Shown here piece after piece: positions 1 to 64,000 of a stretch of DNA of 64,000 nucleotides (position 1 is its first letter; each line of letters opens with the position of its first letter). Below the pieces are notes generated by a model that saw only the letters and a list, made by a program, of their open reading frames with translations, was not told the origin of the DNA and ran no database searches. Where the stretch lies: positions 23,099 to 87,098 of the IMG/VR virus record IMGVR_UViG_3300011448_000001; one strand, written 5' to 3'. Position numbers and translations under genes: made by a program. Source of the stretch: a virus. Lineage: Duplodnaviria; Caudoviricetes.

Positions 1-1219
1 ATGTATACAATTCTGCATCATTATAAGACCAACCACACTCTCTTAAATCATTAGGATTGTCTATATTTAATCCAAAAGTAGCAATTGCTGTTTTAGATCC
101 AACAAAATATCTTATTATCAATGTTCTTGTATACCATTTTTCTGGACAATTTTTATTTTGTGTTCCGTACGCATATACATTTACTTTCTATGAATCCGTA
201 GAAATCTGTTTTCCAGAAGAAGTAAACGTAAATCCGTCTTTAGATATTATTCCACCACTATATGTAGAATAATTCATTATACAAGAATGATTGTTGTTTT
301 TCGTATCATACCAATTTGCACGAGCCTCTATCTAAATACAATATATTTGTTTTAGTTGTTCTTCTGAAATATTGTTTATATAATCTTTAAATTTGATTGC
401 TGTTGTTTCGTTTCCAGATTCTCTATTATCACCACCATACTGTATAAATATATTTTCGTTGTTTCCAGGCTGATCAAATCCTACATAATTTTCATATGTA
501 ACATCGTCGTTATTATATAATTTATATCCTATTCTAGTGGCTGTATCAAGATCAATTCCGTCGTTTTCTTCCCACGTATATTTAATGATCATGTCATCAA
601 ATTCTGATAGGAATATGGAACTTCCGTCTATCTAAATAACACGTAATGTTATTTTTTTACCAGATTCGTTTTGTGTAAATATTACATCAAAATATCTTTC
701 TTCTCCTATATTGTTTTCAGATGCATTTACATAAATACCACCATCAGAATTAGTTATCTATATCCAACTTGGTAATTGATTGTGTGTATATTGTATAAAA
801 CTCCAATCATTATTATCTATCTTTTTAGAACATATTTTAATTTCACTACTATTATCATTTACAACATTATCGATTATAGTAGTAGTATTTTCTCCTATAT
901 ATCCAAACCAATCTGTTTCTCCGTCACCAACAGAATCATAACCACGATAAAAAGCAAATTCATAGTTTTCTGAAGGAGTTGGTTCTTCTGATTTAATAAA
1001 ATGAATGTCTTCGTATAAAATACATTCATTGTCTAGATAAGAAGATCTTCCTGTAGATTCTACGCTATATGTAAGATTTATAATACCATTTATAGAATTA
1101 GAATCTAAAGAATTAATAAAAGATTTTGTAAATACTTCGTTTGAACTATTAGAATATGAACCTCCCCCTGTTGTGATTATATTAGCTAAATCACGCTTTG
1201 TTGCTATTAGTTTGTTCAT
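1..1219 (-). CDS. Tail/structural protein with BACON-like segment; TAG=Gln readthrough; runs off the window edge
   Basis: Track ORFs 758-1219 and 332-592 share one frame joined by TAGs (758, 632, 332, 188). No TAA/TGA in frame down to base 1. Segment VNASENNIGEERYFDVIFTQNESGKKITLRVI(Q) resembles a BACON domain C-terminus. Confidence 0.7.
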
Positions 1220-2642
1220 ATTTATTTACCCTTTCCTTAAGTTCTTCTATTTCGGTTTCTAATTTCTTAATATATAAAATCATTAAAGACTGATAATCTA
1301 CAGATTTAATACCATCTGTTGTATTAACAAGATTGTTAAGACCAGCACATTCAACAGTTTGTGCTATTACTCCATATTTCTTAACATCTTCTCCATTAAA
1401 CATAAACGATACAAGGTTTATATTATCAACCTTATCAAGATCTTCTTTAGAAATAGAATTTATGTTATGTTTAAGATTAATATCAGAAGAAGCGTAGAAT
1501 GTTTTTGCGCTTACTTCATAATCAGAACTAATCGGACTAAGAGTATTTCCACTAAGAGACCAATATGTATCTACTGTACTACCACTACCGCCTTCTATTG
1601 TAATGTTGCCAGAACCAATTAAAGATTGACCGTTTATTGTTTTTAAATCATTAGCCTTAACGTATTCGCTTAAATCTATATCTGGTGCAGTAATAAGAAG
1701 ATCTCCAGTTCCTATTAAAGATTGTCCGTTTATAGTTTTTATCTGTTGATGTGATGTAAGATATTTATTATCACATTCTGTCTTAGTATAATAGTTTGAT
1801 AAATCTACTGTAGGAGCACTAATAGTAATATTACCAGATCCAGTTATTGACTATCCATTTATAGTTTTAAACGTTGGGAAATTAGTAATATCGTTTGTTG
1901 TGTGGGTATGTGAAATATCTGCTTTTTGATTCAGCAAATTATTTGTTTCAGTTTTAGTATAATAATTCTGCAATGTTTGTCCAAGCTATGTATTTGTAAC
2001 ATAGTTTTCAAGACCAAGTTCTGCTTTCTATGTTCCTATAATTTCCCATTGATTATTCTAGAGAAGATATTCTGTATAAATATTATTATTATGTGGATCA
2101 ACAGAAGGAACTAAATAAATAACATTTGGTTTTGCATTACTCTTATCCGGAAGTTCAGTAACAATTTCCATGGTTACTGCAGTCGTAGTAATTGCTTCAA
2201 TTCTATTATTTATCGTATTAAATTCATTATTAACCTCTTGTTTAAAGTTATTAATAGTAGAATCTATTTCACTAATACGTTTATTTATATTAGTAATTGC
2301 GTTTTGTACAGCAGTTAATCCTATTTTTAGATTAGCAATATCACCTTCATTTACAGTAACTCTATTTTCAAGATTTCCTAAACTTATTTTAAGATTAGCA
2401 ATATCTGTTTCGTTATCTGTTATTCTAATTTCATGATTTGCTGTAATTGTTTTAAGATCGTTTATGTCGCTCTTAATTTCTTTTAACATATATATACCGT
2501 GTGTATATATATCTTTATTGTTTGGTTCTACGATAAATGCTATATCGCAACCACATATCAAACCTTCAGATACTTCGTTTTTAAAATCTGCTTCAGTTTT
2601 AGATAATATAAATCTTTGTTTGTGTATAATATTATGATTCAT
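1191..2642 (-). CDS. Tail fibre/spike protein with C-terminal intramolecular chaperone (peptidase S74-like), 483 aa with TAG=Gln
   Basis: ORFs 2058-2642 and 1191-1403 are in frame. Coiled-coil N-terminus, three KTINGQS(I/L)xGxG repeats, and SSDINLKHNI...YGVIAQ...VDY motif followed by a terminal coiled coil. Confidence 0.8.
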
Positions 2643-2862
2643 ATCCTATATATTTCCAATTTATTATATCCTGTGTTAATGACACAACGAGGTCAATTAT
2701 TGCGTTAGCATCTAATATATCTCCAGTGTTATATCCGTTATTAGGATCACCATTTATTATATGGTTTGTTTGTGTATTATTTTTAGTGTTTGTACCAAAC
2801 TGTATTGAATCTCTACAACAGTTGTTACAACACTCACAATTGTTATTATTACAATTTGTCAT
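2632..2862 (-). CDS. Small Cys/Asn-rich hypothetical protein
   Basis: ATG start, TAA stop overlapping the next start; N-terminus MTNCNNNNCECCNNCC. Confidence 0.6.
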   Translation of the reverse strand: MTNCNNNNCECCNNCCRDSIQFGTNTKNNTQTNHIINGDPNNGYNTGDILDANAIIDLVVSLTQDIINWKYIGYES

Positions 2863-3003
2863 ATTTAATTAAGTTTAATTTACACTTATATAGTGTCGGA
2901 AACTCAACGTTACAAAGTTAGAAAGATTTTTAACGAGGTTTCGGATAAATCTATTTTTGTGTAAATGTTGTTAGATTCAATAAGTTTTGAAAATAACAAT
3001 ATA

Positions 3004-3474
3004 TTATGTAAAATGTTCCCAGTCTATTTCAACTTTTTTACCAACTATATCAGAAACCCATCTACGAAACACCATACCTTCATATCCATCAGGATCATTT
3101 ATTATTTTATATGCAGCTAATATACACTACATTTCATTAGATAAAGGATCTGGATATAAATCAGCATAATACATATTAGCAAGATATGTAGCATCTCCTA
3201 TAAATGAATCTGGAACGTTAAAACCGTATTGTATTAATTCTGTTTTTATTTGATTCGGTTCCCAACAATGAGTTACTCCATTTGCATTAATCATCATCTT
3301 ACTAGCATGTGTAGCAAGTTCGTTTGTAAAATGATGACCATGTTTTTTAAGATATTCTTTATATCCTTTTATACATTCCATTGTTTTTTGTATATACTCA
3401 TACGCATCTTTTATAGGAACTTGTTTTTTGTCAACATTATTTGTGTTTTTTCTTACTATAATATATTCTTTCAT
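3004..3474 (-). CDS. Hypothetical protein (HGxHF-motif family), TAG=Gln
   Basis: Track ORF 3127-3474 ends at TAG and continues CILAAYKIINDPDGYEGMVFRRW... to TAA at 3004. Confidence 0.75.
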
Positions 3475-3974
3475 GCTATACGTGTATCTATTTTATTAAT
3501 AAATTTTTCCATCATGGCTTGCTGCTATTTCATTAACATAGAAATATCATCTATAGATTTTTCTATTTTTCCAAATCTTTGTTCATTTTCTTGTTTCTCT
3601 TTGAACACAGGATTTAATTCAGAAAGTAATGATGGTGCTTTATCTATAATTTTATGTGCTTTTTCTGCAGAAGAAAGTATTTGTTCAGCATTTGCTTTTT
3701 GTACTTCTACTTCGTTTACAAGACCAGACTTTTCTGTAGAAAGAACTAAATTCCCAGCATATGTGACAGAAAGACCTTCTGGAATGGTATATATAGCTGT
3801 TTTACCAAAAGCATCTATCGTAACATCAACAACCATTTCTGTTTTACCTGTTTTCTGATTTATATCTAGTCTAGGAAATGATACCTAAGTAACCTTACCT
3901 TGTGTAAGTTCAAGTTCTTGTGTATCTAAAATATATACCGGATAATTTTGTTTTATTTCTTTAAATAGTAACAT
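3471..3974 (-). CDS. Hypothetical protein, TAG=Gln
   Basis: ATG at 3974 (MLLFKEIKQNYPVY); in-frame TAGs; ends at TGA 3471 overlapping the next ATG (ATGA). Confidence 0.75.
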
Positions 3975-4011
3975 ATCTTTTGTTTTTTAAGTTAATGATA
4001 TAGTATTAAAT

Positions 4012-4043
4012 AGAGGTGCAGAGTATTTTTACTCCACACCTTT
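4012..4043 (-). terminator. Possible intrinsic terminator hairpin
   Basis: Intergenic AGGTG..GAGTA-TTTT-TACTC..CACCT inverted repeat. Confidence 0.4.
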
Positions 4044-4050
4044 ATTTATT

Positions 4051-4464
4051 TTAAGCAGCCTAAGCTGGGATTGAAACTGTTAAAGAACTATTAATAGCGT
4101 AACAATTGGATTTACCGCAAATAATTTTAATAAGACCCTGTGTAGATCCTACCTGATTGATTGTTACAGAAGCAGGCAAAGTTGTTCTACCCTAAAAAGC
4201 AATCATAAATCTTTCTGTGATTACTTGAGTAGTAGCTTTACAACCATAACCAGGAGTTACGATAGTAATAGTAGCCACAACAGGAACAAATACTGTAGTA
4301 CCATTAAGTACCGGTGTTTCATTTCTATATGTTACTGTTGCTGATGGCTGATTAGAAGAAGTAGCACAAATTGTGCGACATAACTTCTCCTTAAAAGTAG
4401 CTAATACAGAAACCTGATTAGCTACTGGAGCGGCGGCTAAGCCTACCGGTGATAAAATAACCAT
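4051..4464 (-). CDS. Hypothetical protein, TAG=Gln
   Basis: Track ORF 4192-4464 reads through TAG (MIAF-Q-GRTTLP) to TAA at 4051. Confidence 0.75.
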
Positions 4465-4492
4465 AATTAAACAATTTAATTAATTAATATGA

Positions 4493-5371
4493 TCAAAGTC
4501 CACAACCGCAGTTGTTGTTACATCCGCAGCAGTTATTACAACCACCAAGACGATTCAGTAACAGATTGTTTTGACGCTCCTGAGAAAGCTCAAACTTCAA
4601 ATCCTGAATCTTACGCTGATTCTCATCATTCCAGTGATTATTCAAAGTATCAATTACACGCTGAGTATTAGCGTTACCAGCATTTATGATATCACAAGTC
4701 TGACGCTATGTCTCATAAGAAGAAGTAGCAAATCCTTGAGTAATTGCCTGACCAAGATCACGCTGACCATTACGGAGTTCTCCAGTCTACTGGCACATCT
4801 GCAGAGCCATAGCACTACGGAAGTCACATATGTTCTGACGTATGTTGCAGCAGCATTCCTGTAATTTAGAAATAATATTGCAATCACCGAGATTAGCAGC
4901 ATTAATTACACGCTCTGCTGAGAAACCTACCTGTCCAGCAACCTGCTGAATAGCAGCCTGAACATCACAGCAACACTTCTGGAGAGTATTGAAATCTACG
5001 TTAAGATTCTGTGCCAACTGACTAATAGCAAACGCATTACCCTGTACAGCCTGCTTAATACAATCAGCATTCTGATTATCCTGTAACTATGTACGGATAG
5101 CATTTAACTGAGCCTGAGTTTCGATACCCTGAGTAGCTACACCGGCACCCATGCCGTTACCACCTCCCCAACCGAAACCACCATTGCGGAACAGAGCCAT
5201 AAACATCATATAAGCAAACGGATTATTCATCCAGTTGTTCATACCACCATTCATCATTGCAGCCATAGGTCCCCAACCATCATGATTGTTATTTGCCAAA
5301 ATTGCTGCTGTTAACGCAGTATCGTTATTGTTACGATCGCAACAATAAATTTTTTCAATTGTGTTGTCCAC
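4493..5371 (-). CDS. Gly/Asn/Gln- and Cys-rich (CCC motif) protein, 292 aa with TAG=Gln
   Basis: ORFs 5087-5371 and 4787-5017 are in frame. Readthrough gives AIRT-Q-LQDNQ, MCQ-Q-TGELR and YET-Q-RQTCDII, ending GGCNNCCGCNNNCGCGL-TGA. Confidence 0.85.
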
Positions 5372-5412
5372 AATTATAAAATTTTTAGTTAAGTTTTTGT
5401 TAATTAATTTTT

Positions 5413-8400
5413 TTAATTTTTAGAAACAATGTTTTTTAAGTCGTTGATTGTTTCTTTTAATTCTTTTATTTGTTTTTTAAGATTGATAATCTCTAATATA
5501 AATAAGTTGTTATAGTTCACAGAATACATTTCTTCTTCTGATCCTCTAACAATATTTGGTAATCCTAATTCTAGGACATCTTGTGCAATAACACCATAAT
5601 CAGTGTTGTTATCACCTATATAATTAAATTGTTTATAATTTATATTATTTATCTATTTTAAAGAATCATCATCAATATCTGTAATGTTTTCTTTTGCTCG
5701 TCTGTCAGAAGAAATCTACATTGATTTACTTGAGTATAACGAACCAGTAGGCATAAAATATAAATTACCTGCTGTCTTTATGTGGGCATTAGTCTAACTA
5801 TCTAAAACAATATCGTCGGTTGCATCTAAGTTAATTATATTAGAAGAAAGAGAAATTCGATTATTATTATTTGTACCAGTACTAATCTCTATATCATAAA
5901 TACTATTCCACTAACTAGCATTTATATAAGTATCTAAATTAGATCCGTTTAAAAACTCAATCTCGTTATTACCGATGTTTACATGAGTAGAAGAACTATC
6001 TCCCACAGTAAGATCATTACTAGCGGTAATACTTTGTGTAGATATTTTATTATTATTAAAAATAGATCCGCCGATAGTAGCTGTAGTAGCTTTTAAATTA
6101 TATAAAGTAGTACTTGTTCCTAAAATAATTTCTGGTGCACCATAAGATGCTTTTACTCTAATTGTACCTATAACATTTACATCATATTTATTAATTACAA
6201 CAGAACCGTTTGAGATAGCACTTCCAATATTTATAATATTATTAGTAGTTCCAGAACTAGGTGATTCTCCAAAAGACACGTCCCCTTTTATATTAAGACC
6301 ACCATTTGGTACTGTTAACACAGAAGACAAGTCGTTTAATTTGATTTTATCTTCTTTAGGCATTAATCCATCGAATTCATTAGTTGCTGTTGTAATAGTA
6401 GTAACAACTGCTCCTAAACCCATCATGTCCGTGTTTAAACCAAATGATAATGTATTATTTAACATTGAATAACTAAGATGTGGTGCGACATATTGACCTG
6501 TACCATTAAGTAATTGAAGATTTGGGGACGCGTTACTAATATTAGTAGTAGGTAATTTGGGCATAAGACCGTTAGCAGAGGTGCTTACTAAACTGTAAGT
6601 TGTGTTAGTAGGAATAACCCACGTACCATCTCCTCTTAAGAAACTTGTTTGTTTTCCTGCTGCAGGAGCTGGAACAAGACCTGCTTTACCTGCATTTGAT
6701 GCGGTTGCTGCAGTCATGTTAGAATATGTAGTATTATTATCTGTCCAAGGTACGTAAACATAAGCATTACCACCAGAATCAACTTGAACTTTATAATTCT
6801 TTCCAGAATTAGTATATCCTACTTTTATACCTCCAAGTGCACTGTTTGTTGCTATAGGAAGTATATAATTAGCTAATCCGTCCAATTTAACTTTATCTTC
6901 TTTAGACATTAATCCATTAGAATCTGATGATGCTATATCTCTTGAAGCAGCACCTAAAGCAGTTAATGCAGCAGCAGCTGTAGTAGCACCAGTACCTCCA
7001 TGAGCGATAGAAAGTGTTCCTGTTATGCCAGGAGTTACATTTGCAGAACCATTAAAACTAGCAGCGGTAGTAGAACCGAGATTAGTTTGAATTCTTCTTG
7101 ATGTCTATAAAGTAGTAGCAGTAGTAGCATTACCACTCAAAGCTGCTTTAATGGTAGCAGGTAATTTAAGATTAACAGCAGCAGAACCATTAACGCTTGT
7201 AGTAACAGCAGTACCAGTACCATCTGAATTTACAATACCTATATTACGAGCAGTTCCCCAATTAGCAGTAGTGATGTTCGCTGTTCCATCAAACGCTGTT
7301 CCGTTAATTGTTCTAGCTGTAGCAAGCTTAGTAGCAGTACCAACAGCAACAGTATCTAATGTTGATACACTACCATCAGCCATTAAGAACTAAGATGCTG
7401 TGCCTCCTGATTTAATAAAACTATTAGCTGTAATTGCTTTAGAAAATGTTTTTGTACCACTAATAGTTTGAGTACTATTTAATGTTACATAATTTGCTAA
7501 ACTCTAATGTGCAGTAAGAGGAGTGATACTTGTTCCATTAATAGTAATAGTATTGCCTGAAATCTTTGTATTTCCATCATGTAATACCTTACGCCAAGGT
7601 CTCCAAGTAGTGCTGTTTGCCGTACGGATAAGCAAGTTTGTGTCAGTTTGGCTGCTTTGATAAGGCATTGCCAGCTGAGAACGAAAGTTACCGCCCGAAA
7701 AAGATCCAATGTTTATCACTGAATAATATTTTTCATAGCCGTTTATCAGCTCCTCATTCTCAACACTAATAACCTACGGATTAAGATTAGTATTGTTTAC
7801 GGTTTCAATAGTCTTATTAGACCAAGATACATAATTACCTTTTGCTTGATATTTATTATCTGATTCTGTTTTTGTATAAGCGTCTGTTATACTATAACCA
7901 GATAAAGTAGTAGGTTTAGAAGTTATAGAAGCAAATGTATGAGAATGATTAGTAGTTGTAGCTAATGAAACATTACCACTACCATCCAATGTAGCAGAAC
8001 CAGTTACAGAACCAGTAAGAGATAAAGTTCTTGGTGTAGCCCACTTAGAAGCAGTACTAGCATTACCAGAAAGACTACCTGTAATAGTAGAACCCGAAAT
8101 AGTTACAGAACTATTCTAAATAACTTTACCAGAAGTACCATTATATGTTGCTATTGCATTTGCTGTAGAACTAGATGGACCAGTTACAGCACCATCTATA
8201 TTTGTTTGTACTACGGTCCAATGTGCATTATTAGCAGTAGTTCCATCAGTAATACACATTATTAAATCTCCAACTTCACATTTTACTCCAGCATAAGTTC
8301 CAGACGTAATTACTTTGTAAGTCCATCCTGCGTTATGAGTAGTAGGGAGTGCTGTTACTGTACCACCAGTACCTATAGTTCCTTTAAACAACATTGCATC

Positions 8401-9681
8401 GTTAGCTGCAAGCTTGCTATCAACAGCTGCTTGTACAAATGCTGTAGTAGCTATTTGAGTAGTATTAGTTCCAGCAGCAGCAGTAGGTGCCTTAGGAGTA
8501 CCTGTAAATGTTGGATTAGTAAACATGGTTGTTTTAGATTCGTTTGTTACATTTCCTAAACCAACCTATGCTTTAGTAACTTTATGTGGATTAGCTACAT
8601 TAGCTATATGAGTATCGAGATTTGTCTAAGCATCAGTACCTGCTTTTTTAGCGTCTGCTATGGCAGCAGCCTATGCAGTAGAAACTGGTTTATTTGCATC
8701 AGTTGTATTATCAACATTATCAAGTCCTATATTAGCTTTAGTAATATTTATATTACCTGTTCTATAAGTAGATTCGCTACTACCTTTAACACCAGTTACT
8801 GTATTCTTTTGAGCACCTGTAGCAATTCCAGCAAGTTTATCTTTTTCAGCTTTAGTATAATCACTTGTACTTAATCCTGGAGTTGTTCCATCTGCTAAAG
8901 TATTTGGAATTGTAACTGTTCTTGTTGTCTAACTTGTTACATGTCCATTAGTATTAGTAGCAACTTGTGATATACTAAAAGTATCTCCAAAGGATGGAGT
9001 CTAATCAGCTGTTTCTATACCAGTAGTTGCAGTAAAGGTTGGATGAGTATATTTATTTGCTCCAGATGTTATACTATCAAGTTTAGTTTTATCTGCAGCA
9101 GACATAAGTCCCGCAGCAGTTGTAGTAGCAGCAGAATAAGTAGTATCTTTAGCTGTTATAGTTAATTTATCATTAGTAGCATCCGGAGTAAGAGTAATAT
9201 TACTTCCTGCTACAAATTCAACAATATCTGTTTTTGTATCAGCAGCAATAGTAGTAGTTCCTACTTTTATGTTAGAGAATGAGTTTTGATTAACTTCTGC
9301 ACCTGTTGCTATTCCTGCTAATTTATTTTTTTCAGTTGTTGTATAATCGTTAGTAGATAATACTTTTCCTGTTACTTTATCTACTTTATTGTCTAACGCT
9401 GTTTGTGTTGCGGTAGATATTGGTTTATTAATATCAGAAGTATTATCTACATTTCCTAATCCAACTTGTGATTTGGTTACTCCGTGTGGATTAGATTTAT
9501 TATTTGTATGTGTTGTTAAATTTGCTTGTACTGCGTCAGAATTGCAATCGTAATAAACATCATCAGACCATATTTTTTTCTATGTTTTAAGAAAAACAAT
9601 ATCATCTTTTTTTGCGGTCCCAGCAGCAACTTTCTAATCAAATGCAGTTTTATTAAGTTCGCTTTTTACAAATTTTACCAT
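5413..9681 (-). CDS. Long tail fibre (about 1422 aa) with C-terminal S74-like chaperone, TAG=Gln
   Basis: Six track ORFs (5911, 7105, 7504, 7774, 8116 and the upstream region) fall in one frame. Thr/Ala/Gly-rich fibre repeats (NPHxVTKxQVGLGNV; GLMSxxDKxKL). C-terminal SSDRRAKENI...YGVIAQ...VNY. TAA at 5413. Confidence 0.85.
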
Positions 9682-9736
9682 TTTTATTAATTATTAAAAA
9701 ATACATTAAAGCTGCTAAGATGCAACTTGTTGTTTA

Positions 9737-10909
9737 TTATGCGAGTACGTTCCAAGTAAGACAAGTATCTGTATATGCTTTTGCACTTGCAAGAGTGTTT
9801 GCATCACCAGTTACTCTAGCGGTTTCTTCTGTCTTAATTGCTGTCGCAATATTATTAATGTTTGTCTAAACGTTTGTTCCTGCAATTGCTACGGCAGTTC
9901 CAGATGCAGCAACAGCAGTACTTGAAATATTAGAAGCTGTTTTAGCTATAGTGGTAGCAGAAATTTTACCATTTGTTTCTGTAACAGAAGTTACAATTGT
10001 GTTTGCATTACCAATTGTAGCAACATCTAATGCGTTTACTGCACTATTAATAGCGCTCTGTACTCCAGATAATTTAATTCCATCTGTACCTACAGTTAAA
10101 AATGATTCAGAGGTGGAATCTTTTTTTACAGAAATAACACCATCTATAACTTGTAAACCATCTGCATATTCTGATTCAAGAATAAAATCAGACATATCTA
10201 TAGTAACTACATTTTCTGTTCCATCAGTAAGAATGTATGTATATATAAGAGACTGTCCGTTTCTTACAACACTTTTAAGAGTAGAGTCCTTATATACAGG
10301 GATTGATCCTATAACAGCACCACTCTTACCTATAATGTCATACTGCTCTTTTACATTTGCTGCAAGACCAGTAGTTTTCTTAGTAACAGAAAGATTAGCT
10401 AAAATACCACTTGCGCTCTGTGTTAATATTTTATCTGTGCTATTAATAGATAAACCAACGCCGTTTGTTGTATCGAGAACAACAGCCTGATTTGGTTTAA
10501 TATTTACTTTTGCTGTAGTTCCGTCTGTAGTTTCTGTTATAACTAAAGATTTATCAGCAGCAGATAAATGTTGTTTTGTTGCAGTTGTTTCAAGTGTAGA
10601 AATACGATCTGTATTATTATCTACCTGTGAAAATTTTTCTTTTGACATTAAACCATCAGTAGTTGCACTAGCTTTTATAAGTGTAATTACTGTAGTTTTA
10701 CCATCTTTGTGTGTAAAAGTTATTTTATTAGGAGAAGTATATGTTACGCTTAAAACTGCTCCGTTTAATATTTCTGCCTAAGTAGAATCAAGTCCATATT
10801 CTACTCCGTTTACAATTATAATTTTTCGGTCTGTTGCAAAAAATATACCGTCTTCGTATGTTTTTGCGTCATATTTACTATACAGACCTCTAATAAAAGA
10901 TACGTTCAT
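9737..10909 (-). CDS. Tail fibre-like structural protein (390 aa), TAG=Gln
   Basis: ATG at 10909 is in frame with track ORF 9866-10648; contains ATTDGLMSKE fibre motif; TAA at 9737. Confidence 0.75.
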
Positions 10910-10926
10910 GTTTTAATTTTTATTTT

Positions 10927-11556
10927 TTATTTCCACGTAAGTTGTGTTTCTATTTTATGTATATTATTAGTAACAACCGAGTTTGCTATTGGATAATTAG
11001 AACTTTCGTTTAATTCTAAATCTACATCTAAATTATCATGTATATAATCCCAGATACTCTAAAAATCTTTATTTAATCCGTCTGGATCTATATATGGTTG
11101 CCAAGTACCTACTTTTTCCCATTTACCAACACCATCAGTTATTACCCAAATATATTCATCAAATATGTTTGATTGTGGAGGATCTTCTTCAGTATCTGTT
11201 TCTGGTTTATGGGGAGTTAAAAACATTTTATTTTTAAGTTCCTCCGCCGGTTCTTCTGGAAGTTCGTTTACAACAATCGCTATTCTTTCGTCTAAATCAA
11301 ACGATATTATAGCGTCTTTGGTACCATCTTCTTTGATATAGTTATCTATTTTAATACCATGACCAGCGTTTGCTTGAGTTAAAATGTTTTGTTTTTTATC
11401 AAGTTCTATATAATTAGACTTGGCAGTTAGTATATCTACATCCTATAATAATTCTGTTCTAGCAGATTGTTCTTTTTCAAGCATTATCAATCTTGGTTGC
11501 TACCAAATATTTTTACGACTACGCGCCTTTGTTTCTATTAATTGATTAGCTATCAT
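10927..11556 (-). CDS. Hypothetical structural protein (209 aa), TAG=Gln
   Basis: Checked codon by codon: only TAG interruptions. Motif NIFDEYIWV...WEKVGT echoes NIYTEYLL...WEIIGT in the 1191-2642 gene. Confidence 0.75.
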
Positions 11557-11558
11557 TG

Positions 11559-11948
11559 TTAAATATATTTTTTCCAATCTATGTTTATATCTTTAGATTT
11601 TGTATAATTTAGCCAATCCTAAAATGCGTGGCCCTCATAACTATTATTGTTTTTAGAATAAATAACAGCATAATTTATACATTGATCTTCAGATTCAAAT
11701 ATAGAATTGAAGTTTGCATAAGCTATGTTTGCAACATAAAATATATCATATAATGTAGAATTATTTAATAAAGACACAGCTTTATTATTATCTAACAACC
11801 ACTTATCTATTTTTTCTAATGTAATTATATTATTAGTAATAATAGTAGACAATGCAAAATTTACAAGTTTTTCTGTAAAATGTAAACCATGCTATTTTAT
11901 GTATTCTTTTTTATATTGCTTGTCTTTATATGATTTTAGTACATACAT
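11559..11948 (-). CDS. Hypothetical protein (HGxHF family, paralog of 3004-3474), TAG=Gln
   Basis: MYVLKSYKDKQYKKEYIK-Q-HGLHFTEKL...YEGHAF-Q-DWLNY; TAA at 11559. Confidence 0.75.
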
Positions 11949-11982
11949 AACTAATTAGTTTATTAATGTATAATAATAAAAA

Positions 11983-12004
11983 GAGGGCTCCGTTTGGAGT
12001 CCTC
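11983..12004 (-). terminator. Intrinsic terminator after dUTPase
   Basis: GAGGGCTCC-GTTT-GGAGTCCTC hairpin followed by a T-run on the minus strand. Confidence 0.65.
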
Positions 12005-12670: not shown

Positions 12671-12763
12671 CCTGTGTTATGTACAATTAATTTAATAAGA
12701 GTTTTTGATAAACAAAATCAAGTTATAATTTTTATGAGAAAAAAATAAATTTTTTAAAGGTCG

Positions 12764-12835
12764 TACCCCCAGTACGATTCGAACGCACACTAAAGGGGTT
12801 AGAGCCCTCTGTGCTAACCATTACACCATGGGGGA
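12764..12835 (-). tRNA. Amber suppressor tRNA (anticodon CUA), presumed Gln
   Basis: Full cloverleaf: acceptor CCCCCA/TGGGGG, D-arm GTGT/GCAC, anticodon arm GAGGG-CTCTAAC-CCCTT (CTA at 12800-12802), T-arm GTGCG-TTCGAAT-CGTAC. CCA is not encoded. Confidence 0.92.
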
Positions 12836-20973: not shown

Positions 20974-21008
20974 ATTATAAGGGGGAGCTTGGACTCTCCC
21001 CCTTAAAA

Positions 21009-21077
21009 ACTCAGCCAAGAAGAGTATAAAATAGTCACTGATGAGACTTGGACGAAACACAAATGTGTCTGACGTGA
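21009..21077 (+). ncRNA. Hammerhead-like ribozyme (type I variant)
   Basis: GTCA-CTGATGA-G..C-GAAA-CAC(AAAT)GTG-TC-TGAC: intact core, stems I and III, GUC cleavage triplet; stem II reduced to 1 bp. Confidence 0.6.
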
Positions 21078-21226: not shown

Positions 21227-21310
21227 GCCTTTATGGCGGAATTGGTAGACGCGAGGGACTTAAAATCCCTTGTCCAGTTGGACGTGCAGGTTCGACTCCT
21301 GTTAGAGGCA
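21227..21310 (+). tRNA. trnL: tRNA-Leu(TAA)
   Basis: GCCTTTA/TAGAGGC acceptor, GGCGGAATTGGTAGACGC D-arm, AGGGA-CTTAAAA-TCCCT, long variable arm, GCAGG-TTCGACT-CCTGT. Confidence 0.93.
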
Positions 21311-21644
21311 CAACTTGTTGAATTGTCGTAATTTTAAATTGTATTGACTGAAAAGTATACATACTTTCAGTAAACAGTGGCTTCGGATGAAAGACCGTGG
21401 CATTTTCTTTATGCATTTTTTGTGAAGGGGTTTTTCGGTTTTCTTTAATCTTAAAGAAAATGGAAATAACTCTGACTGATATTAAAAAACTCAATAACAT
21501 CCCAAGACGTTGAGGGCACCGGTTTCTTGTTTGTAGCACAGATTATCTACCTATATAGATTACATTAGATGTAAAAGCTATAATAAACAAGTTTTAGGTG
21601 TAAAACGCGAGTTAATTAACATTATAAACAAAAACATTATCAAA

Positions 21645-24436: not shown

Positions 24437-24937
24437 ATGGGAAAGAACAAAAACGCCGCACAGGCACCAGTAGAGAACAAGACAGCAGTAGAGAACAAGC
24501 CAGCAACAGGTACACAGGCACCTGAGACAGACATCGAGGCACAGATCAAGGAGAAGAACTCCCTTAACGCAGAGTATTTCAACGAGGCAGCAGAGGCAAT
24601 TGCCAAAGAGCGCAAGGATACTGCAGTTGCAGAGGCTAAACAGCTTCTTGCTCGTGCAGAGTTTACTAACGCAGCAGCATTACTTGGACTCCGCTTACAG
24701 AGAGCTCGTGAAAAAGCTGTTAAAGCGTTCCTCAACAGTTCAAAAGAACTTCTTGAGGAAGCAAAGGCTGGTAAACTTACCAAGATCGAGACAGACAAGA
24801 AGTTTGACGAACTAATTGGTGAGAAGGACAAAGCGCTTACAGAAGCACGTGGTAATTACAACGATGCTATGCGTGAGCTTAAGCGTAACTTCAACCGCTG
24901 GGAGTGTTGGAGCTGGGAAATCAACTGGGGGTTCTAA
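24437..24937 (+). CDS. Coiled-coil hypothetical protein
   Basis: Ala/Glu/Lys-rich heptads; higher-GC codon usage typical of highly expressed genes in this window. Confidence 0.8.
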   Translation: MGKNKNAAQAPVENKTAVENKPATGTQAPETDIEAQIKEKNSLNAEYFNEAAEAIAKERKDTAVAEAKQLLARAEFTNAAALLGLRLQRAREKAVKAFLNSSKELLEEAKAGKLTKIETDKKFDELIGEKDKALTEARGNYNDAMRELKRNFNRWECWSWEINWGF

Positions 24938-25429
24938 GATTTTCGTCAGTACATCATGTACAAAATCAGAAGGGAGAATCCTAGATAAGAACCTTTGAGT
25001 CAATGTCTAAAATGTACGAGGGAAGGGAATATGTGCATACATAGCTGATGCATAGTTGAGAAATTGAACTACATTTTCTATGAATTAACATAGAGTTATA
25101 CGAGCCACCGAGCCATTATAACGGACACCTCCATACCGAAAACACGGTATAGAAAAATATGTATTCGGGTCAACCTATGGTAAATCGAGTCATTGAACCT
25201 TATTATATCTCTAAAAGAGCTCTATAATTATTTACTAATATCAAGAATACTAATAATGCCGACAAGAGCCTTTGAGTCACGTCACTAGCATTTGTACAAA
25301 TTTACGTTCTAAGCACTTTTTATTATGCAGCAGTATAAACTGTAAACATGTATAGTAAAAGTGTCTTAGAACGCTTATAAAGTACTTTATATCGAATGTT
25401 TACATTTGACCCTGTAAGCATTCACAAAA

Positions 25430-25730
25430 AAAGGATCGCTTGAGTGTGATGTAAATATGCAAGACGAGGGTTCGACTCCCTCTAGCTCCACAAAACCAAT
25501 CAAAAAGGCAAGAATCAAAACTCTAAAAATAGGCACCTACTAGGAGACAGCCCACTTGGTGTAGAGAAGCACATTTTGATTGGTTCTATATAAGGGGCTA
25601 TATGGCATTTGATTGCATAGGAGATAAACACGAGATCAACATAAAAACAAACGACAATAGTAATATTGTTGACTATACTTGCGTAGCGTAAGTAAATGTC
25701 TGAGGTAGCTGTACCAATAACCGAAAACAG
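25430..25730 (+). ncRNA. ssrA: Circularly permuted (two-piece) tmRNA; outer boundaries approximate
   Basis: The 3' module TATGCAA-GAC-GAGGG-TTCGACT-CCCTC-TAGCTCC-A (25456-90) precedes the 5' module GGGGCTA-TATGGCATTTGA-TTGCATA (25594-619). G3-U70 pair. Tag ORF 25647-25691. Confidence 0.85.
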
Positions 25731-25733
25731 CAA

Positions 25734-25787
25734 GGAGAGATTGGATAAGGTAACACTTAAAGAGTTCGAATCTCTTTCTCTCCTCCG
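25734..25787 (+). ncRNA. Anticodon-less mini-tRNA-like element C
   Basis: GGAGAGA/TCTCTCC 7-bp acceptor-like stem, 19-nt linker, AAGAG-TTCGAAT-CTCTT T-arm, 3' TCCG. Confidence 0.65.
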
Positions 25788-25821
25788 TTAACTTAATACA
25801 AATTATCAAAATTTAAACAAC

Positions 25822-26172
25822 ATGAAAAGATTAGAACAAAAAGATCTGATGCACATAAAAGGTGGATACAGAGAACAGATACGAATAATTGTATCTGAGT
25901 GTGAGCCACTTAACCGTGCTTTACTGTTGACAAGAATGAAAAACAACTTCATCAGTATGCTTTATGACGTATCAATAAAACCATACGTCATGCAAAAAGA
26001 CAAATTAAACACAATTTGCTGCTTTATAAACCAGTTTAATTGTGATTGTGTCGAAAATGAAGATGCATATTCTTTCTATCGCTATTTGATAGCACCTGTA
26101 TATGACACTATGTCTACTATGAATAAAGAAATCTTAAACGAAATTGGTAATATTATACTAAAAAATGGATAA
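25822..26172 (+). CDS. Hypothetical protein
   Basis: 116-aa ORF. Confidence 0.65.
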   Translation: MKRLEQKDLMHIKGGYREQIRIIVSECEPLNRALLLTRMKNNFISMLYDVSIKPYVMQKDKLNTICCFINQFNCDCVENEDAYSFYRYLIAPVYDTMSTMNKEILNEIGNIILKNG

Positions 26173-44470: not shown

Positions 44471-44514
44471 TATATAGAATAAGAATAATCTAGGCAAATT
44501 AAAAATAATTTTAA

Positions 44515-47500
44515 TTATATATTTCTTCTAGATCTTCTTTCTTCAGCTCTATCTTTTCTTTCTTGTATACGTTCTTGCATCCTTTCTTTTCTTTCCTATA
44601 TTCTTTCGTATCTTTCTCTTAATCCTGGATGTTTTATATATTTTAATTCTTGTTTAGCTTCTTCTGTTTTTAATATATGATTACCAGTAATAGTAAATAA
44701 ATATTTATACTAATTTTGATAGAAAACATCAGTCTATGATGCTCCGTTTGGTGCAAAAGTAGAATGAAGATTCTTGAGAGGGCTTATTAAATATGCTAAA
44801 TTTTTAACCTAAATAGATTCTCCTCTATAAGCACCCTGTTTAACTATTTCACTACCATCTACTGCGAATGAGAATAAATCTGGATTTATTGCATAAGCAG
44901 CATTCTACATTAATCCTGCAGCACCTTGCCCAAATGTTTCAGCACCAGAAGATATAGCAATAGCAGTTTTTACTAAGTCATATACAGCATATGGTGACAT
45001 TTCATCCATAGTACCACCAATTAAACGTGTTTGCAATAAATTAGTAGTATATCTATACTCTCCGTTTTGTATCCAAGCATTTGGAGAGAAATCTATTATA
45101 TTAGAACTTCTTTCTCCTGTTGAAGTAACAAATCCAGATGGTGCAGGTTTGGCTTCTGTTTCCATTTTTAAAGAATTATGTGCTTCTACACAAGCCATTA
45201 TTTGACCATATAAGAATGCAGCATCTATTATAGTTTTACATATTGCATTTCTTGATACAGAATTCATTATATCAAGTTTTTTCCACTAAAAAGTAAATAA
45301 ATAATACGCATTGTGTAATATTCTTAAACAAAATCTTGCTACTTCATAAAGAATCTAATCATTATATTCTCCAGTAGCAACATTAAAAGATATATTTTTA
45401 CGGAACTAAGGATTATCGCTAAGCATATCATCAACTCTTTCAGCAATATATTTTATACTTTTCCTAAACACATTACCTTTAAGTTTATAATTTTCTTTTT
45501 CTTTTACATTATATAAAGTATAATCATCTCCATGAGTGGTCCACTGTTGAATTGTTTGTAACATCCAATTACGTATAGAAAATATCCATTTTCCCCACCA
45601 TTGTGTTTGAAAATAAGGAGTATCGTTTTCTGGTTGCATACCATTATATAATGCTGATCTTAATTGTGTTTTGGTATATATACGTGTTGCCTTATCGTCA
45701 GTTAAATATTTTTCATATTCTGGTTTTATATATAACTTTCCGTTTTTAAAACCGTATGCATCCCACATTGTTTTTTTACACAACAAATGTGCTTTTCTTG
45801 CAGAAATACCACTAAATCCACTATTTTTAAACGCAGCAACTAATTCGTGTCTTGTATAAAATCCAGGTTTTACATATGGACCGGTATATAATCTACTTCC
45901 GTTATAAAATGCTCTTAACACTAACGCTGTGTTTACATAATCAAACGCAGAAAATGAATCCATTAACCAGTTTGTAGGATTTACATAATGAGATAATTTA
46001 CCGTGATTTAACATACTAATTCTATCTCTAAACGAATGTTTCATACTGTTTAACTACATTAATGCAACAAGTTTAGATGTGGGAACTGGAGTACCGCAAC
46101 TTCTAAATATCTATGTAAGTTCATATGGATTTAATACGTCAGCTATAGCAGCAAAGAAATCTCTTGGTCCATTATATTTCATTAAAAGAGACTGTCTGAA
46201 AAATTTAAAGAAAGAATCAAGTCCACCAGTTATTGCTGCTGTAAAATTAAATCCAAGCATTCTTAACTACAGCATAGTTTTAATTCTTATAGTCATTTTC
46301 TATGCTCCGACAGAGTTTAATTTGCTTTTTTTAGCAGACAAGCTCTCAGATTCACTTGTATCGTTTACTCTTTCAAACATATGAGTTTTCATCATATTAT
46401 TAAATGCTTCCCAAGAATTTACACTATTATTTGCATAAATACGATCAACAGTCTATTCTCTATTTTTAGGAGCTAAAGCATTCTATAATAAAGAAAGCTA
46501 TGGTAACACTTGTGTTTTTTCTTTAAATAAATTAGCCATATCAGCAAATGCAAGTACTGCTTCTGTAATGTGTGATGTTATAGAAGAAGGATCATCAAGT
46601 TTTCTTAAAAATCTTATTGGAACATGATACATGTTTGTTCCATCTGCATTCTTTACATCGCTCTATAAACGTATATATTCATAATCGTTTTGTTGCATAC
46701 CAAATGCAGCATTCATCAAATAGTTCCATGTTTTACCTCGTGATTTAGAGTTTAATAAATTACAACGAGAAAGAATAGACATTGTATTTCCTTCTATTTG
46801 CGGTAAGAAATATTGATATTGACCAGAATTTGGTTGAACTATAGCTAAAGATTGTTTCATTACATTTATAAGTTTATCATAAAGAGCTTTTTGTTCGTTA
46901 TTTTCAGCCATTTTATAATAATCTTTGTTTTCATAATATTCTTTCTTTGGCTATACTCCATTAGGATCAGAATGATCATATTCTGAATTATAATATTCAC
47001 CATAAGATTCTGAAAATCTACTTCCTATTGGAATATAATCAACCGTTTTTCTTTTTGTACCGTCGTTAGAAATAAATTCCTATTCTGATGGTTCCATCTA
47101 TGAGAAAACACCAATTAATACGTCTGGTTCATATTGTTTATTACCATTTTCGTCGTAATATTCACGAGTATATCTAAATAAATGTTCATCCAACCAGTTT
47201 ATTATTTGTGTTTGTGTTTTACCTTCAAAACTAATCGGAACTCCGTTAGCATCAGTTAAATTATGTATAAATCCTGTCTATAATGCTTCTTCTACATATT
47301 TTTTCTATACATATTCATATGCAGTCATAGGAATTCTGGTCTTAGATGTATCTCCAGAATAGTATCTTTCTCCAGTAAGTTTATCTATAAGAATATATCG
47401 TGTTACTCTATCTGGACCAACTTCCTTTTCAATGTATAAAGTTGGAGAAGTTTTATATTTCTATGTAAACATCTTAAAGAAACTATCTCCTTCTTCTATA

Positions 47501-50500
47501 GAAACATTTCTTGTTTTTACACCTCTATTTATAATTTCATCTCTGTTTCTAGCATCAATAAAGAACTAAGGATTGTTTATGAATTTTGATAAATCTCTAG
47601 TAAATGCATCATAAGTATGCATACTACTTTTAAGTGCTGACTAAAAATAACTTGCTTTTATAGCTTCGTTTTTTAAACTATCGTCATCACTATATTCTTT
47701 ATATCTAGTAAATCTACCAAAAGTTTGATCAAAATAATCTGGATCTATCTGTCTTCTTGTGTTATATTTATAAAATTCTTGTAATTTTAAGTTAACATGT
47801 ATCTACATATTACGTTCTTCCTAAGATCCAGGCTATATTGGATGATTAAGACTTTGTATATATTCATTCTATGCTGTTGCAATAATTCTATTAATTTCTT
47901 TATCGAATTTCTATCTATCTATACTTTTATTAGTTTTTTCACCAATAAAATTCTACCAAGCTTGTATTTCAAGAGCACATTTTACATCTTCGTCTGATTT
48001 TAATTCTCCTTCTTCTGTATATGGATTAGATAATTCTTCTAATTTAGTTTTCCAACTATCAAGAGATATTTTATCAGAAGGTTCTAATTCTTCTGGTTTA
48101 GCAAAACCGTTTTTATCTGTACATTTATCAAGATAATAATTTATATTAGACTATATACGATTATATCTAGTAAGTGTTTTTAATGATAAGCCGTGTCCTT
48201 TAGAAGCATAAATATTATAATTACCATATTCATCAGTACTTCCATCATACGGAATAGATAAACGTTCTTTATAGTACTCTAACGTATATCGTTTATTAGC
48301 ATGTTTACATTCCCATTCTTCAATTTTAAGTAACCATTCTACATACGGAGGTTGCACAGGTTTTCCTTCTTCATCGTATTCCCATTCTTCGTTTTCAGCA
48401 GGATATTGACTTCCAGATCTGATAACAACACCGGCATCGTTTTCATAATAGAAAAATCCATATTTGTTTTCAAATTCTTCTTTAAGTCTGTCCATAAATT
48501 CACACCTATCGATATTATACTAACCATAATTTATAGGTCTTACAAAATTTCCAGTAGGATTACCAAGTCTATCATATTCCATAAATACCTTTTCCCAACT
48601 TCCAGGTCTCCAAGAATTTCCTAAAGGTTTTGCTTCTTTATACAAATTCATGACGTCGTTCTATATTTCTATAGACTGTTTATTTGCTCTATAATTAGCT
48701 TCTTGTATAACCTAGAAAGCAAGTTTTATAACCGGATTCTCAGAATAAGAATAATTACTAAACCATTTAGAGATATTAGAAATATCAGAATGTACAGCGT
48801 TTTTATGTAACCAATCTTTAGCGTTTTCTTTTACTTTTTCTTTTCGTGTAGTATTATCTATTGTATACCACTTATCAACAAGATCGTCTATGATTTTATC
48901 AGTAACCTATAATAATGCAGATCTCCAATAAGCAATAGCCTAATCTATACTAATCTACAAATCATAAGATCTGTCTCTTAGATCTTTATCAGACCAATGA
49001 TTATTACTATGATTTAATCTAGCATCACCAATTAATTTGTGTATTTCTTGTAAATAAGACAACGCATTATCCCACAAATCAAATAATTGTTTATCGGTTA
49101 TTCCTTTAAATGTTCCATCTGGTTGTATTATATCATCAAAAAATCCTAAAATAGTACCTTTTCTTTCCTCTCTGGTTTGATTAATACTTCCCAATCTATC
49201 TTGAGCAAACATTAAACCAATTCTTAAAGATTCTTTATCGTGTTTAGTTTTTAGATCTTGATAATTTTCATAGATTTTATCCTATATTCTTTGTTGACTT
49301 TTTGTTTTCTTTTGTACATTGTTATACTTATTATACATTTTAGAAAACAATTTTAACATATCATAAGACAATTGCTCTTCTAAATCATTAAAATGTTTTA
49401 TAGAATAAGCATGTTTTATATTATAGATCTATTGACCAGGAAGATTATATTTAATATCTTTTTTAGATTTATCAGATAAATATATCTATACTTGTTCTGA
49501 AGTAATAAGTTCAGCTAAATCTTTAAGTTTTATATTTTTGTTTATATTAACAAAACTTGCAGCAATCTTTCTACCTATTTCTTTGAATTTAGTAATAATC
49601 CAAGATAAGAACTATGTTTCGATTTTACGTTCTTCTTTAGTAAGAGTATCATAGCGTTTCTTTACTATTTTAGTAAGTGTTTGTGTTACAATTTCATTAT
49701 CTATATCTTCTTTAGAAAAACCTTTATAACGTTTTTGTATATCTTTTACCAAAGATTTATAATTCTTTAAAGCATCTTTTAAAAGATTATTAAAAGCCAT
49801 AGTGTTATCATACTACATAGAAGTAATTAACGGGTGTAAAAACTCTTCTATTGCAATTTCAGCAGTAACTCTACCTTCGATTAAGTATATAGTACCATCT
49901 TTTACAAATGAATTTGCTTCAGCGTTTATATGTTCTTCGGTAACCCATTTATCAAAGAATTCGTTTTGTTGTACCCACTCTATATTAATTTCTGGAAACA
50001 CATCTTTTAGATAATTTAAATATGTTCCTATAACTTCTTTATCTTTTTTAGATGTTTTTTCAGAGAAACCTTCACCTACATATTGTAAAACAAATGGTTG
50101 TATATTATCATTTTTCCATTTATTTAATAAACGTACTCTATAACCATTAGATTTAGCAGCTTCAAATATACTATTTATTTTATCTTCAGAGTCTTCAGTA
50201 GTCCATACACCGTTGCTATGTCTAGTAGCTAACTATGACATCTATGATATAACGTCTTCATTTATTTCTCCTAAACTGTGATATATATTATCATCTTTAG
50301 TAGAAAATGCACCTTCATTATATAATGCTGATTTTATCTGATTTGGATTAAACGCTATATATATAGTAGCAGGAACCACTTTAGCAGAACCAGCATCCTT
50401 TAAATTTTTAATTATAACACCATCGTAATCTTCAGTTTTTGCCAAATTTGCCAACTGTCTAATAGACCAATAATCTTTATTTGGACCATACGGAATTTCA

Positions 50501-51111
50501 TCATAACCATGACCATTTGCGTCAACAATTAAAGGATTTTTTATAGTTTCAAATAACACCATAGATTTATTTTGTTGGGTTTCTATAATTTCTTCGTAGT
50601 GATCCCTCATCTAATCTAATACATTATGAGAAACTTCAGATTCGTCATAAATCATATCGGGCGGAGTTATATAATCTCTTATATCGTTCATATAAGAATC
50701 TGCAATAGATTTTACATCTGTTGTAAATATAGATAATCTGTCATCTGATTCATTTATATCATATGTATCAAAATCAAAATTGGTTCCGTGATATACAATC
50801 AACGGTTCTTCGTTCTAATCTACAACTTTAGATACATTAGTTTTATCATCAGATATCCAATCGCCAAACCAATTCCTAAAGCTCTTTGAATACACTTTAG
50901 ACTTTTCCTATATAGCTTTAGCTCTATCGCCATTTAGACCGTCTAATAATGCTTTAAATAGCTTAGAATCGGCCCCGTTAGGGGCCTTATCTAAACCATA
51001 ACCATTATTCTCGGCTATAACATAATATGCAGCATTTTCACTACTAAGTATCTCAGTATATTCCTACAGAAGAGCTGCAACTTCTAGATTTTTAAAATTT
51101 ATACAATTCAT
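44515..51111 (-). CDS. Giant virion cargo (polyvalent) protein, about 2198 aa with TAG=Gln; N-terminal ART-PolyVal-like domain
   Basis: Nine track fragments share one frame. ATG at 51111 overlaps the upstream TAA; TAA at 44515. SKVVD-Q-NEEPLIVYHGT...YDGVIIKN...IAFNPNQIKSA. Junctions spot-checked only. Confidence 0.8.
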
Positions 51112-63100: not shown

Positions 63101-64000
63101 ATTTTTTTATATTGTTTAATTTATCTATATAAGTTTTTAATTTATCTTCTGATACCTATAAATCAAATGGAAGGACTCCTGTAGATAAATAAGAAACTAT
63201 ACTATGTCTTATATCTTTTGCATATCTAAGATCTGAATTTTCGATAAATATTTCTTTTGCAACAGCCTCTTCAATACTGTCAACATTACGATATTTAGAA
63301 TATTTAGTAAGATCTTTATTTAATTCAGCACTTAATCCGTTTAAGTATTCATCAAATAATTTTTGATCTTTTTTTGCTTCTTTTATTTCATATATCGTAT
63401 TTAAATATTTTTCTTGCCCGAATTGATTTCTTATCTAAGACCATGCAAGATTAGAATACATAACTATTTTATCATCTTCTTGTACAAACGTATGCCAAAA
63501 ACTTGATATTTCTGGTATTATTTTCTTGTTTGATTCGTGTAATAAATCTTTTAAGTCTTTTGTTATAGTAGATTCTGGTTGTGGTTCTTTAGAAATTCCA
63601 TATGATATTACTTCTTCAGCACTACTTACGTTTTCTAATGGGTATTTTACTCTTTGTCTTATATATAGCTATTTAAGAGCATTCATCATAGATTTAGCTG
63701 AAAAATCATCTCCCATTACATCTTTAATATCATCGACTAATTCCTAGAAAGTATATATTCCAACCTAAGCTGCCTTCATTAAATTTATAGCAATGTTTGC
63801 CATAACTTTTAATGTACCTAAAGTAAAATCTATATGAAGATTTTCACGATATTTTTTATTAAGTTTTTTCTTTCGAGAATTCCAACGACGTTTTGCAGCT
63901 TCTTTCCTCAATCTTCTTACTCTAGGTTTGGCCTCCCTTTTTTCAGATTTTGTTTTTTCTCCTGAAAAAATTGCTATATATTTTTTGTTGTTTTTTTTTT
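51111..64000 (-). CDS. Giant virion RNA polymerase polyprotein (over 4290 aa, start beyond the window), TAG=Gln
   Basis: Eighteen track fragments share one frame. GYRIPTQ...GSDFDIDHL (DFDID at 55179-93) is the crAss-type RNAP catalytic motif. Junctions I checked contain only TAG. Confidence 0.88.

Follow-up and report, generated by a model that had tools for sequence, protein, structure and literature searches.

A predicted, very small two-piece tmRNA gene in a TAG-recoded crAss-like phage

A very small two-piece (circularly permuted) tmRNA gene, conserved among related phages, has been identified in a stretch of viral DNA of 64,000 nucleotides (hereafter the window). Judged by sequence comparison the locus qualifies as a genuine gene, and very probably as a circularly permuted tmRNA (ssrA) gene of Bacteroidota type that is functional in the phage encoding it. 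The window comes from an IMG/VR virus record of 87 kb, estimated to be 86% complete, and the source phage is a TAG-recoded member of the Suoliviridae, order Crassvirales (crAss-like). The gene is a diverged new member of a catalogued but unstudied family, and is not new as a kind.

The program ARAGORN calls a permuted tmRNA ('tmRNA*') at 25401-25782; within this call the 3' tRNA domain covers 25455-25491, the 5' one 25594-25620, and the tag DNSNIVDYTCVA 25653-25691. The Rfam model RF04321 (tmRNA_permuted) aligns full length to positions 25434-25691 in a permissive scan (37.9 bits, E 8.5e-6), and the E-value is 1.4e-7 in a search of the whole record. Such a match is much better than chance would give. 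It nevertheless falls short of the RF04321 gathering score of 47, and the locus is missing from the default Rfam scan. The model derives from alpha-, beta- and cyanobacterial sequences only (PMC11915505), so the shortfall is ascribed to lineage divergence and not to a missing feature. An initial annotation, made from the letters alone, had proposed a permuted tmRNA in a crAss-like, TAG-recoded phage, and had named ARAGORN and permuted Rfam models as suitable checks. The proposal is borne out by the ARAGORN call, the RF04321 match and the genome context; the Rfam check agrees in the extent of the match but not in its score.

Within the tRNA-like domain the 3' module precedes the 5' module, as already noticed in that annotation, and ARAGORN flags the order as permuted. 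T arm and acceptor 3' end (25466-90) are followed by the intervening segment and then by the 5' half, from 25594 (Table 1). GGGGCTA occurs once in the 64-kb window, and the sole TAGCTCCA within its reach is located upstream of it; the permuted pairing is thus the sole possible pairing.

Table 1. Features of the predicted two-piece tmRNA gene and of the suppressor tRNA gene in the window
Feature	Positions	Strand	Basis or remark
Amber suppressor tRNA, anticodon CTA	12763-12835	-	ARAGORN
Candidate Bacteroidota-type -7 promoter box TACATTTG	25402-25409	+	Fits TAnnTTTG; read from the sequence, tentative guess
Acceptor piece (core)	25434-25490	+	ARAGORN 3' tRNA domain, RF04321 alignment, RNAduplex helices, covariation
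P2c strand GATC	25434-25437	+	Acceptor piece
P2b strand GTGT	25444-25447	+	Acceptor piece
P2a strand TATGCAA	25456-25462	+	Acceptor piece
T arm GAGGG-TTCGACT-CCCTC	25466-25482	+	TTCGAnT loop
Acceptor 3' strand TAGCTCC	25483-25489	+	Followed by discriminator A 25490
Intervening segment, 103 nt	25491-25593	+	Presumably removed on maturation
Coding piece	25594-25733	+	ARAGORN 5' tRNA domain, alignments A1 and A3
Acceptor 5' strand GGGGCTA	25594-25600	+	Coding piece; 7 bp with TAGCTCC
D-loop analogue TATGGCATTTGA, no D stem	25601-25612	+	ARAGORN placement
P2a strand TTGCATA	25613-25619	+	Coding piece
P2b strand ACAC	25628-25631	+	Coding piece
P2c strand GATC	25634-25637	+	Coding piece
Tag frame, resume GAC, peptide DNSNIVDYTCVA, stop TAA	25653-25691	+	ARAGORN and alignment to relatives
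Post-tag hairpin GCTGT/ACAGC	25708-25712 with 25727-25731	+	Nearest relative (L148) keeps GCAC/GTGC and the same CAATAAC loop
Anticodon-less tRNA-like element, acceptor GGAGAGA/TCTCTCC, T arm AAGAG-TTCGAAT-CTCTT	25734-25783	+	Comparison with relatives

The two halves are joined by the 7-bp acceptor stem and by the helices P2a (7 bp), P2b (4 bp) and P2c (4 bp). The acceptor stem features the alanine identity determinants G3-U70 and A73, and helix 2, formed by TATGCAA and TTGCATA, is present and covaries next to the T arm; both elements had been recognized in the initial annotation. CCA is absent from the gene, A 25490 being followed by CAA. RNAduplex recovers the helices of the acceptor piece. 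An unconstrained co-fold of both pieces recovers the acceptor stem and the T arm and misses the P2 helices, so that P2 rests on comparison and not on energy. A hairpin GAC...GTC in the acceptor piece of relatives was considered and dropped for the intermolecular P2c pairing (GGTCAAT/ATTGACT), which covaries.

Relatives were collected by an exact-pattern scan of IMG/VR, in which T arm and acceptor end were specified and three positions left free, and at least 122 sites were found. The 5' tRNA-like motif was located 20-700 nt downstream of the T arm, with no pairing requirement. Among the matches listed, 63 of 64 viral loci pair at 7 of 7 positions with the acceptor 3' strand in this unbiased setting, and six different combinations are found at acceptor positions 6-7 of the fully paired ones. 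The tmRNA family of the window spans more than 60 IMG/VR phage contigs, and includes at least about 31 distinct genes with the window's tag family.

Two alignments have been analyzed for covariation. In A3, which comprises 14 members of the window's subfamily, pairing in acceptor stem, T arm and helix 2 reaches 90% of the cells, compared with 70.5% in shuffles, and 14 of the 23 pairs change on both sides. The covariation score is 0.509 versus 0.126 in shuffles, none of 500 scoring as high, and slid controls range from 0.06 to 0.14. Acceptor stem and T arm are 100% paired in this subfamily, and four of the five T-stem pairs covary. In A2, which comprises 28 family members, the five proposed helices are 87% paired and the score is 0.274 versus 0.150 (0/500 shuffles; slid controls 0.03-0.07), a result obtained despite register errors in the alignment. 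In the two sets the acceptor stem is 98.5-100% paired, with compensatory changes, and G3-U70 is found in 14/14 and 28/28 sequences, respectively. Three P2a pairs beside the T arm are 100% paired and covary, and the inner ones are blurred by the register of a bulge in relatives. Acceptor stem and helix 2, for which the initial annotation had suggested a covariation test, thus passed it in both alignments.

In the nearest relative (L148), the sigma factor of which is 57% identical, every helix is altered in a compensatory way. The acceptor stem GGGGCTA/TAGCTCC of the window is replaced by GGGGATG/CATCTCC, P2a TTGCATA/TATGCAA by TTCGTTTA/TAAACGAA, P2b ACAC/GTGT by ATAC/GTAT, and P2c GATC/GATC by GACT/AGTC. 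Phages integrating at ssrA carry 3' fragments of the gene, as is generally known and is mentioned in PMC9004378, and the Rfam score is under the cut-off; the locus could accordingly be read as a non-functional relic, an integration-site fragment of a host tmRNA gene, or as a chance resemblance. This is extremely improbable, as compensatory change has preserved the two halves, every helix and the tag frame across dozens of related phage contigs, the gene occupies a fixed syntenic place, and the tag is unlike that of the host.

Other permuted genes came to light as well. A Bohxovirus sp. 'endotrachealis' (PV686213; L002:2361-2690) hosts a permuted tmRNA gene whose intervening segment measures only 16 nt and whose tag is GNFNVVDYTCVA; it is missed by ARAGORN, and the GenBank record has no feature there. 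A second permuted phage family shares the same T arm and features tags like GKTINVNFAPAQFRAAA, often TAG-stopped, and a further one, again with the same T arm, features tags like ANDxxYALAA (loci L040, L045, L050, L054, L071, L083, L097, L099, L109; L051, L068, L078, L082).

The intervening segment of the window is clamped by a perfect 12-bp inverted repeat (25494-505 with 25574-585), confirmed as initially described, and folds with an energy of -22.5 kcal/mol (z -2.68 versus shuffles). In relatives the segment ranges from 16 to 460 nt, is structured and not conserved in sequence, and sometimes includes extra tRNA-like genes. The 460-nt segments of L007 (850-1700), L014 and L017 hold a tRNA-like gene with about 75 nt enclosed by its anticodon stem. 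In L166 the segment holds a second T arm, ending with CCAGCTCCA.

The tag had been initially assigned to a frame spanning 25647-25691. The frame is real and ends with TAA at 25689-91, but the ACA at 25647, proposed as resume codon, did not hold up. A resume codon could be located in 28 of 29 distinct family genes; it is GGC in 19 and GAC in 9, and is followed by AA and has an A at position -4 in 28/28. The window GAC-AAT at 25653, preceded by AAAC, aligns with the GAC-AAT and GGC-AAT of close relatives, equally preceded by AAAC. Translation most likely resumes at GAC 25653, 12 codons before the stop, and the predicted tag is (A)DNSNIVDYTCVA; it would hence begin at a G, like standard tags. Codons for the conserved Asp-Tyr-Thr residues vary synonymously in the family (GAC 20 and GAT 9; TAT 25 and TAC 4; ACT 22, ACA 3 and ACC 1), which argues that the tag is read as translated sequence. 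Tag stops are TAA in 21 genes, TGA in 8 and TAG in none; the absence of TAG fits, weakly, a phage reading TAG as sense.

The exact 3' tail of the window's tag gene was found in 25 other IMG/VR contigs, most of crAss size, and sister tags end with LAA, IAA, LVA, GAA, AVA or VTA. The notion that the CVA ending serves to avoid ClpXP found no support, the ending being a family trait, shared with 25 or more related contigs. E. coli tag variants that end with -LVA are efficient degrons. Tags of host Bacteroidales (GENNYALAA, GNNEYALAA, GEKNYALAA) differ from those of the phage family, in which a D-Y-T/S core, absent from the host tags, is conserved more strongly than the C-terminal residues. One could argue from this core that a working tmRNA adds a distinct tag (…VDYTCVA vs host …NYALAA) to give its products another fate, such as degradation that is slowed or abolished, or a phage factor that recognizes them. 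We consider it rather unlikely, since most family tags end with a hydrophobic residue followed by Ala-Ala or Val-Ala, the general degron pattern, and no protease or adaptor of the phage is known to be associated with the tag.

From the tRNA-like element located downstream we infer that the coding piece ends at 25733. A second T arm (GGTTCGAnTCC) is found downstream of the tag in 30/30 aligned relatives, and a simple search detects an acceptor-like stem, differing in sequence, in 26 of them, mostly 28-49 nt past the tag stop. ARAGORN accepts 8 of these 26 trailing elements as tRNAs, several with aberrant anticodon loops, and rejects the other 18. The trailing element is probably a processing mark, which sets the 3' end of the coding piece. 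Pseudoknots PK1-PK4 are typical of tmRNA, although not universal. The resume codon follows P2c after only 15 nt, and the tRNA-like element follows the stop after 42 nt, which include one hairpin. These spacers seem to leave no room for the usual four pseudoknots, and the predicted tmRNA is minimal, about 200 nt in size. A candidate post-tag pseudoknot (GGTA/TACC with GCTG/CAGC) was dropped because its loops would be zero-length.

An RNA apparently stripped of pseudoknots might also act as a decoy, which binds host SmpB or occupies stalled ribosomes and thereby blocks host trans-translation instead of rescuing ribosomes. No SmpB gene was found in the 86%-complete phage record, and such a role has been proposed for the molecule of mycobacteriophage DS6A, which consists of the tRNA-like domain (TLD) only; a tmRNA-inhibiting, TLD-only phage molecule is described in PMC4131195 and PMC11915505. 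A decoy would not need a conserved tag frame, however, and the frame is conserved as coding, with synonymous changes, an A at -4 that never varies, and a stop left intact in 29/29 distinct genes; we regard this role as improbable.

A working tmRNA remains the preferred reading, and its production can be outlined as follows. The locus would be transcribed on the plus strand along with the TAG-free, presumably early gene block, and the precursor would fold so as to extrude the 103-nt intervening hairpin. Host RNase P would cleave 5' of G25594, the 3' end past A25490 would be trimmed and CCA added, and cleavage by RNase P at the tRNA-like element at 25734 would free the coding piece. The expected products are two RNAs held together by base pairing, one of up to about 77 nt and the other of about 140 nt. 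Host AlaRS would charge the RNA, and EF-Tu and SmpB of the host, the latter presumably needed as the phage record has none, would deliver it to stalled ribosomes. Resumption at GAC 25653 would add Ala-DNSNIVDYTCVA and halt at TAA. The likely benefit would be extra ribosome rescue while infection yields many truncated or read-through messages, the latter possibly originating from suppression of TAG stops. According to the accessible text of PMC6207430, ribosomes are rescued at unassigned UAG codons in E. coli that has been recoded. A link between tmRNA and TAG recoding is attractive, and is suggested by co-occurrence at the phage-family level only.

Boxes similar to the candidate -7 box of Table 1 are found upstream of the gene in cr60_1 (TAGGTTTG) and in the relative L007 (TATCTTTG), and are unclear in Bohxovirus-like relatives; the motif has six fixed bases and is common by chance. 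No sigma-70 promoter or terminator was detected on the plus strand in a scan of the 24900-26000 interval. The sequence CTTAGAACGC, found at 25365-25374 in the window, recurs 60-130 nt upstream of the acceptor piece in relatives (L002, L146 and others), often doubled. Its recurrence suggests a connection between the tmRNA unit and a structured RNA region that precedes it (24982-25382).

The assignment of the phage agrees with its DNA polymerase, which shows 62% identity to its counterparts in cr272_1 and cr273_1 and 56% to a Bohxovirus polymerase; these phages are all Suoliviridae. Giant minus-strand ORFs, corresponding to late genes, are found at 1-12000 and 44500-64000. Long frames on this strand require that TAG is read as an amino acid, 63 in-frame TAGs being found within 4266 codons and 48 within 2198 codons. 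The plus-strand block hosting the tmRNA has zero in-frame TAGs. The window, cr60_1 and cr273_1 agree in the order tmRNA, small ORFs, sigma factor, and sigma-factor homologues adjoin the tmRNA in 46 of the loci collected. A megablast search of GenBank phages with 12 kb around the tmRNA locus gave zero matches, and no close relative was found by searching with the window's sigma factor.

The T-arm/acceptor pattern, 27 nt long, was also searched for in bacterial genomes, each species being represented by one. Matches are mostly from Bacteroidota (about 68 of 80 among the matches listed), and the tRNA-like domain of the phage tmRNA is assigned by sequence to the Bacteroidota (ssrA) type. The permuted order was found in 0/108 classifiable bacterial hits, all 108 being standard one-piece genes. 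Among the matches listed, 91 viral contigs could be classified, 63 as permuted and 28 as standard. On this distribution, the permuted order looks like a change of a host-type gene that occurred inside phages. Standard one-piece tmRNAs were seen in other contigs of crAss size (L023:1842-2242, L027:9836-10136, L012). P2a of the one-piece L023 gene (CTAGTAGT/ACTGTTAG) matches that of a permuted subgroup, for example L049 (CTAGTAGT/ACTATTAG), and the common helix hints at where the permutation arose.

The one-piece tmRNA of Segatella copri (L201:5933-6329; 397 nt, tag GENNYALAA) has a near-identical T arm and acceptor end, and is akin to the phage family also for the GGC-type resume codon and the A-rich context. 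The S. copri RNA is a single molecule with pseudoknots, whereas the phage RNA, about 200 nt long, consists of two pieces and encodes a different tag. Two-piece tmRNAs of Alphaproteobacteria, of a betaproteobacterial lineage and of cyanobacteria (Rfam RF01849-51, RF04321) were reportedly described by Keiler et al. in 2000 and by Sharkady and Williams in 2004. These have the same order (3' half, intervening segment, 5' half, tag), their pieces are similarly joined by acceptor stem and helix 2, and maturation by tRNA-processing enzymes is expected for them as for the window gene. In contrast, the tRNA-like domain of the window gene is of Bacteroidota type, hosts of which use one-piece tmRNA, and its RNA seems to leave no room for pseudoknots and has a sub-cut-off Rfam score. 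The crAss-like permutation is probably of separate origin. A fuller scenario is put forward tentatively, as a possibility that we hold to be somewhat less than even: a Bacteroidota-type tmRNA would have been permuted in phages, pared to a pseudoknot-free tag-encoding RNA of about 200 nt, excised from a longer early transcript by means of tRNA-like marks, and kept because of the rescue demand arising from TAG recoding.

Marine T4-like phages (Methylophilales phage Melnitz and pelagimyophages) similarly host a permuted tmRNA, with no phage SmpB reported (PMC9004378). Their tmRNA resembles the permuted one of an alphaproteobacterial host lineage and carries a glutamine riboswitch (PMC9004378). 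The window gene, in contrast, is permuted in spite of a host type that is not, and has a tRNA-like element at its end in place of the riboswitch.

The closest known genes are those of the Suoliviridae cr60_1 (NC_055891 12121-12567) and cr273_1 (NC_055904 35492-35861), which feature the same permuted order, are equally sited upstream of the sigma-factor gene, and encode tags of the same family (GNTSYVMDYTRLAA and GNINVVDYTGLQEAA, respectively, versus DNSNIVDYTCVA). A tRNA or tRNA-like element trails them as in the window, where it is reduced to 50 nt. The window gene differs in having GAC and not GGC as resume codon, a tag one to three residues shorter with a CVA end, and different helix sequences. 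Over the window gene the closest GenBank records give only a BLAST match of about 55 nt.

Whether the form was catalogued for Crassvirales had been left open in the initial annotation. RefSeq annotates "transfer-messenger RNA, SsrA" in both cr60_1 and cr273_1, and 13 crAss phages appear as "Permuted", and one more as linear, in Table S1 of Buchholz et al. 2022 (PMC9004378). They are not discussed there, and the text treats two-piece phage tmRNA as mainly marine. A 2025 tmRNA database paper includes 79 phage sequences and places the permuted form mainly in three bacterial clades (PMC11915505). In the accessible portions of the literature on crAss-like phages tmRNA is named in methods, counts and reference lists, and no discussion of the permuted gene was found; the word is absent from a 2020 preprint on crAss genomics.

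CrAss-like phages are among the most abundant human gut viruses, and the family reassigns the TAG stop codon; a rescue RNA supplied by the phage is a plausible and testable part of their translation management. The family offers a very small natural two-piece, apparently pseudoknot-free tmRNA for structure-function work. Standard pipelines miss some members, the window gene being below the Rfam cut-off and the Bohxovirus gene uncalled, so that the trait is under-counted in viromes.

As a minor observation, a RAGATH-1 hammerhead ribozyme (21008-21074; 69.2 bits, above the gathering score) was detected in the window about 150 nt upstream of a tRNA-Leu(TAA) (21227-21311).
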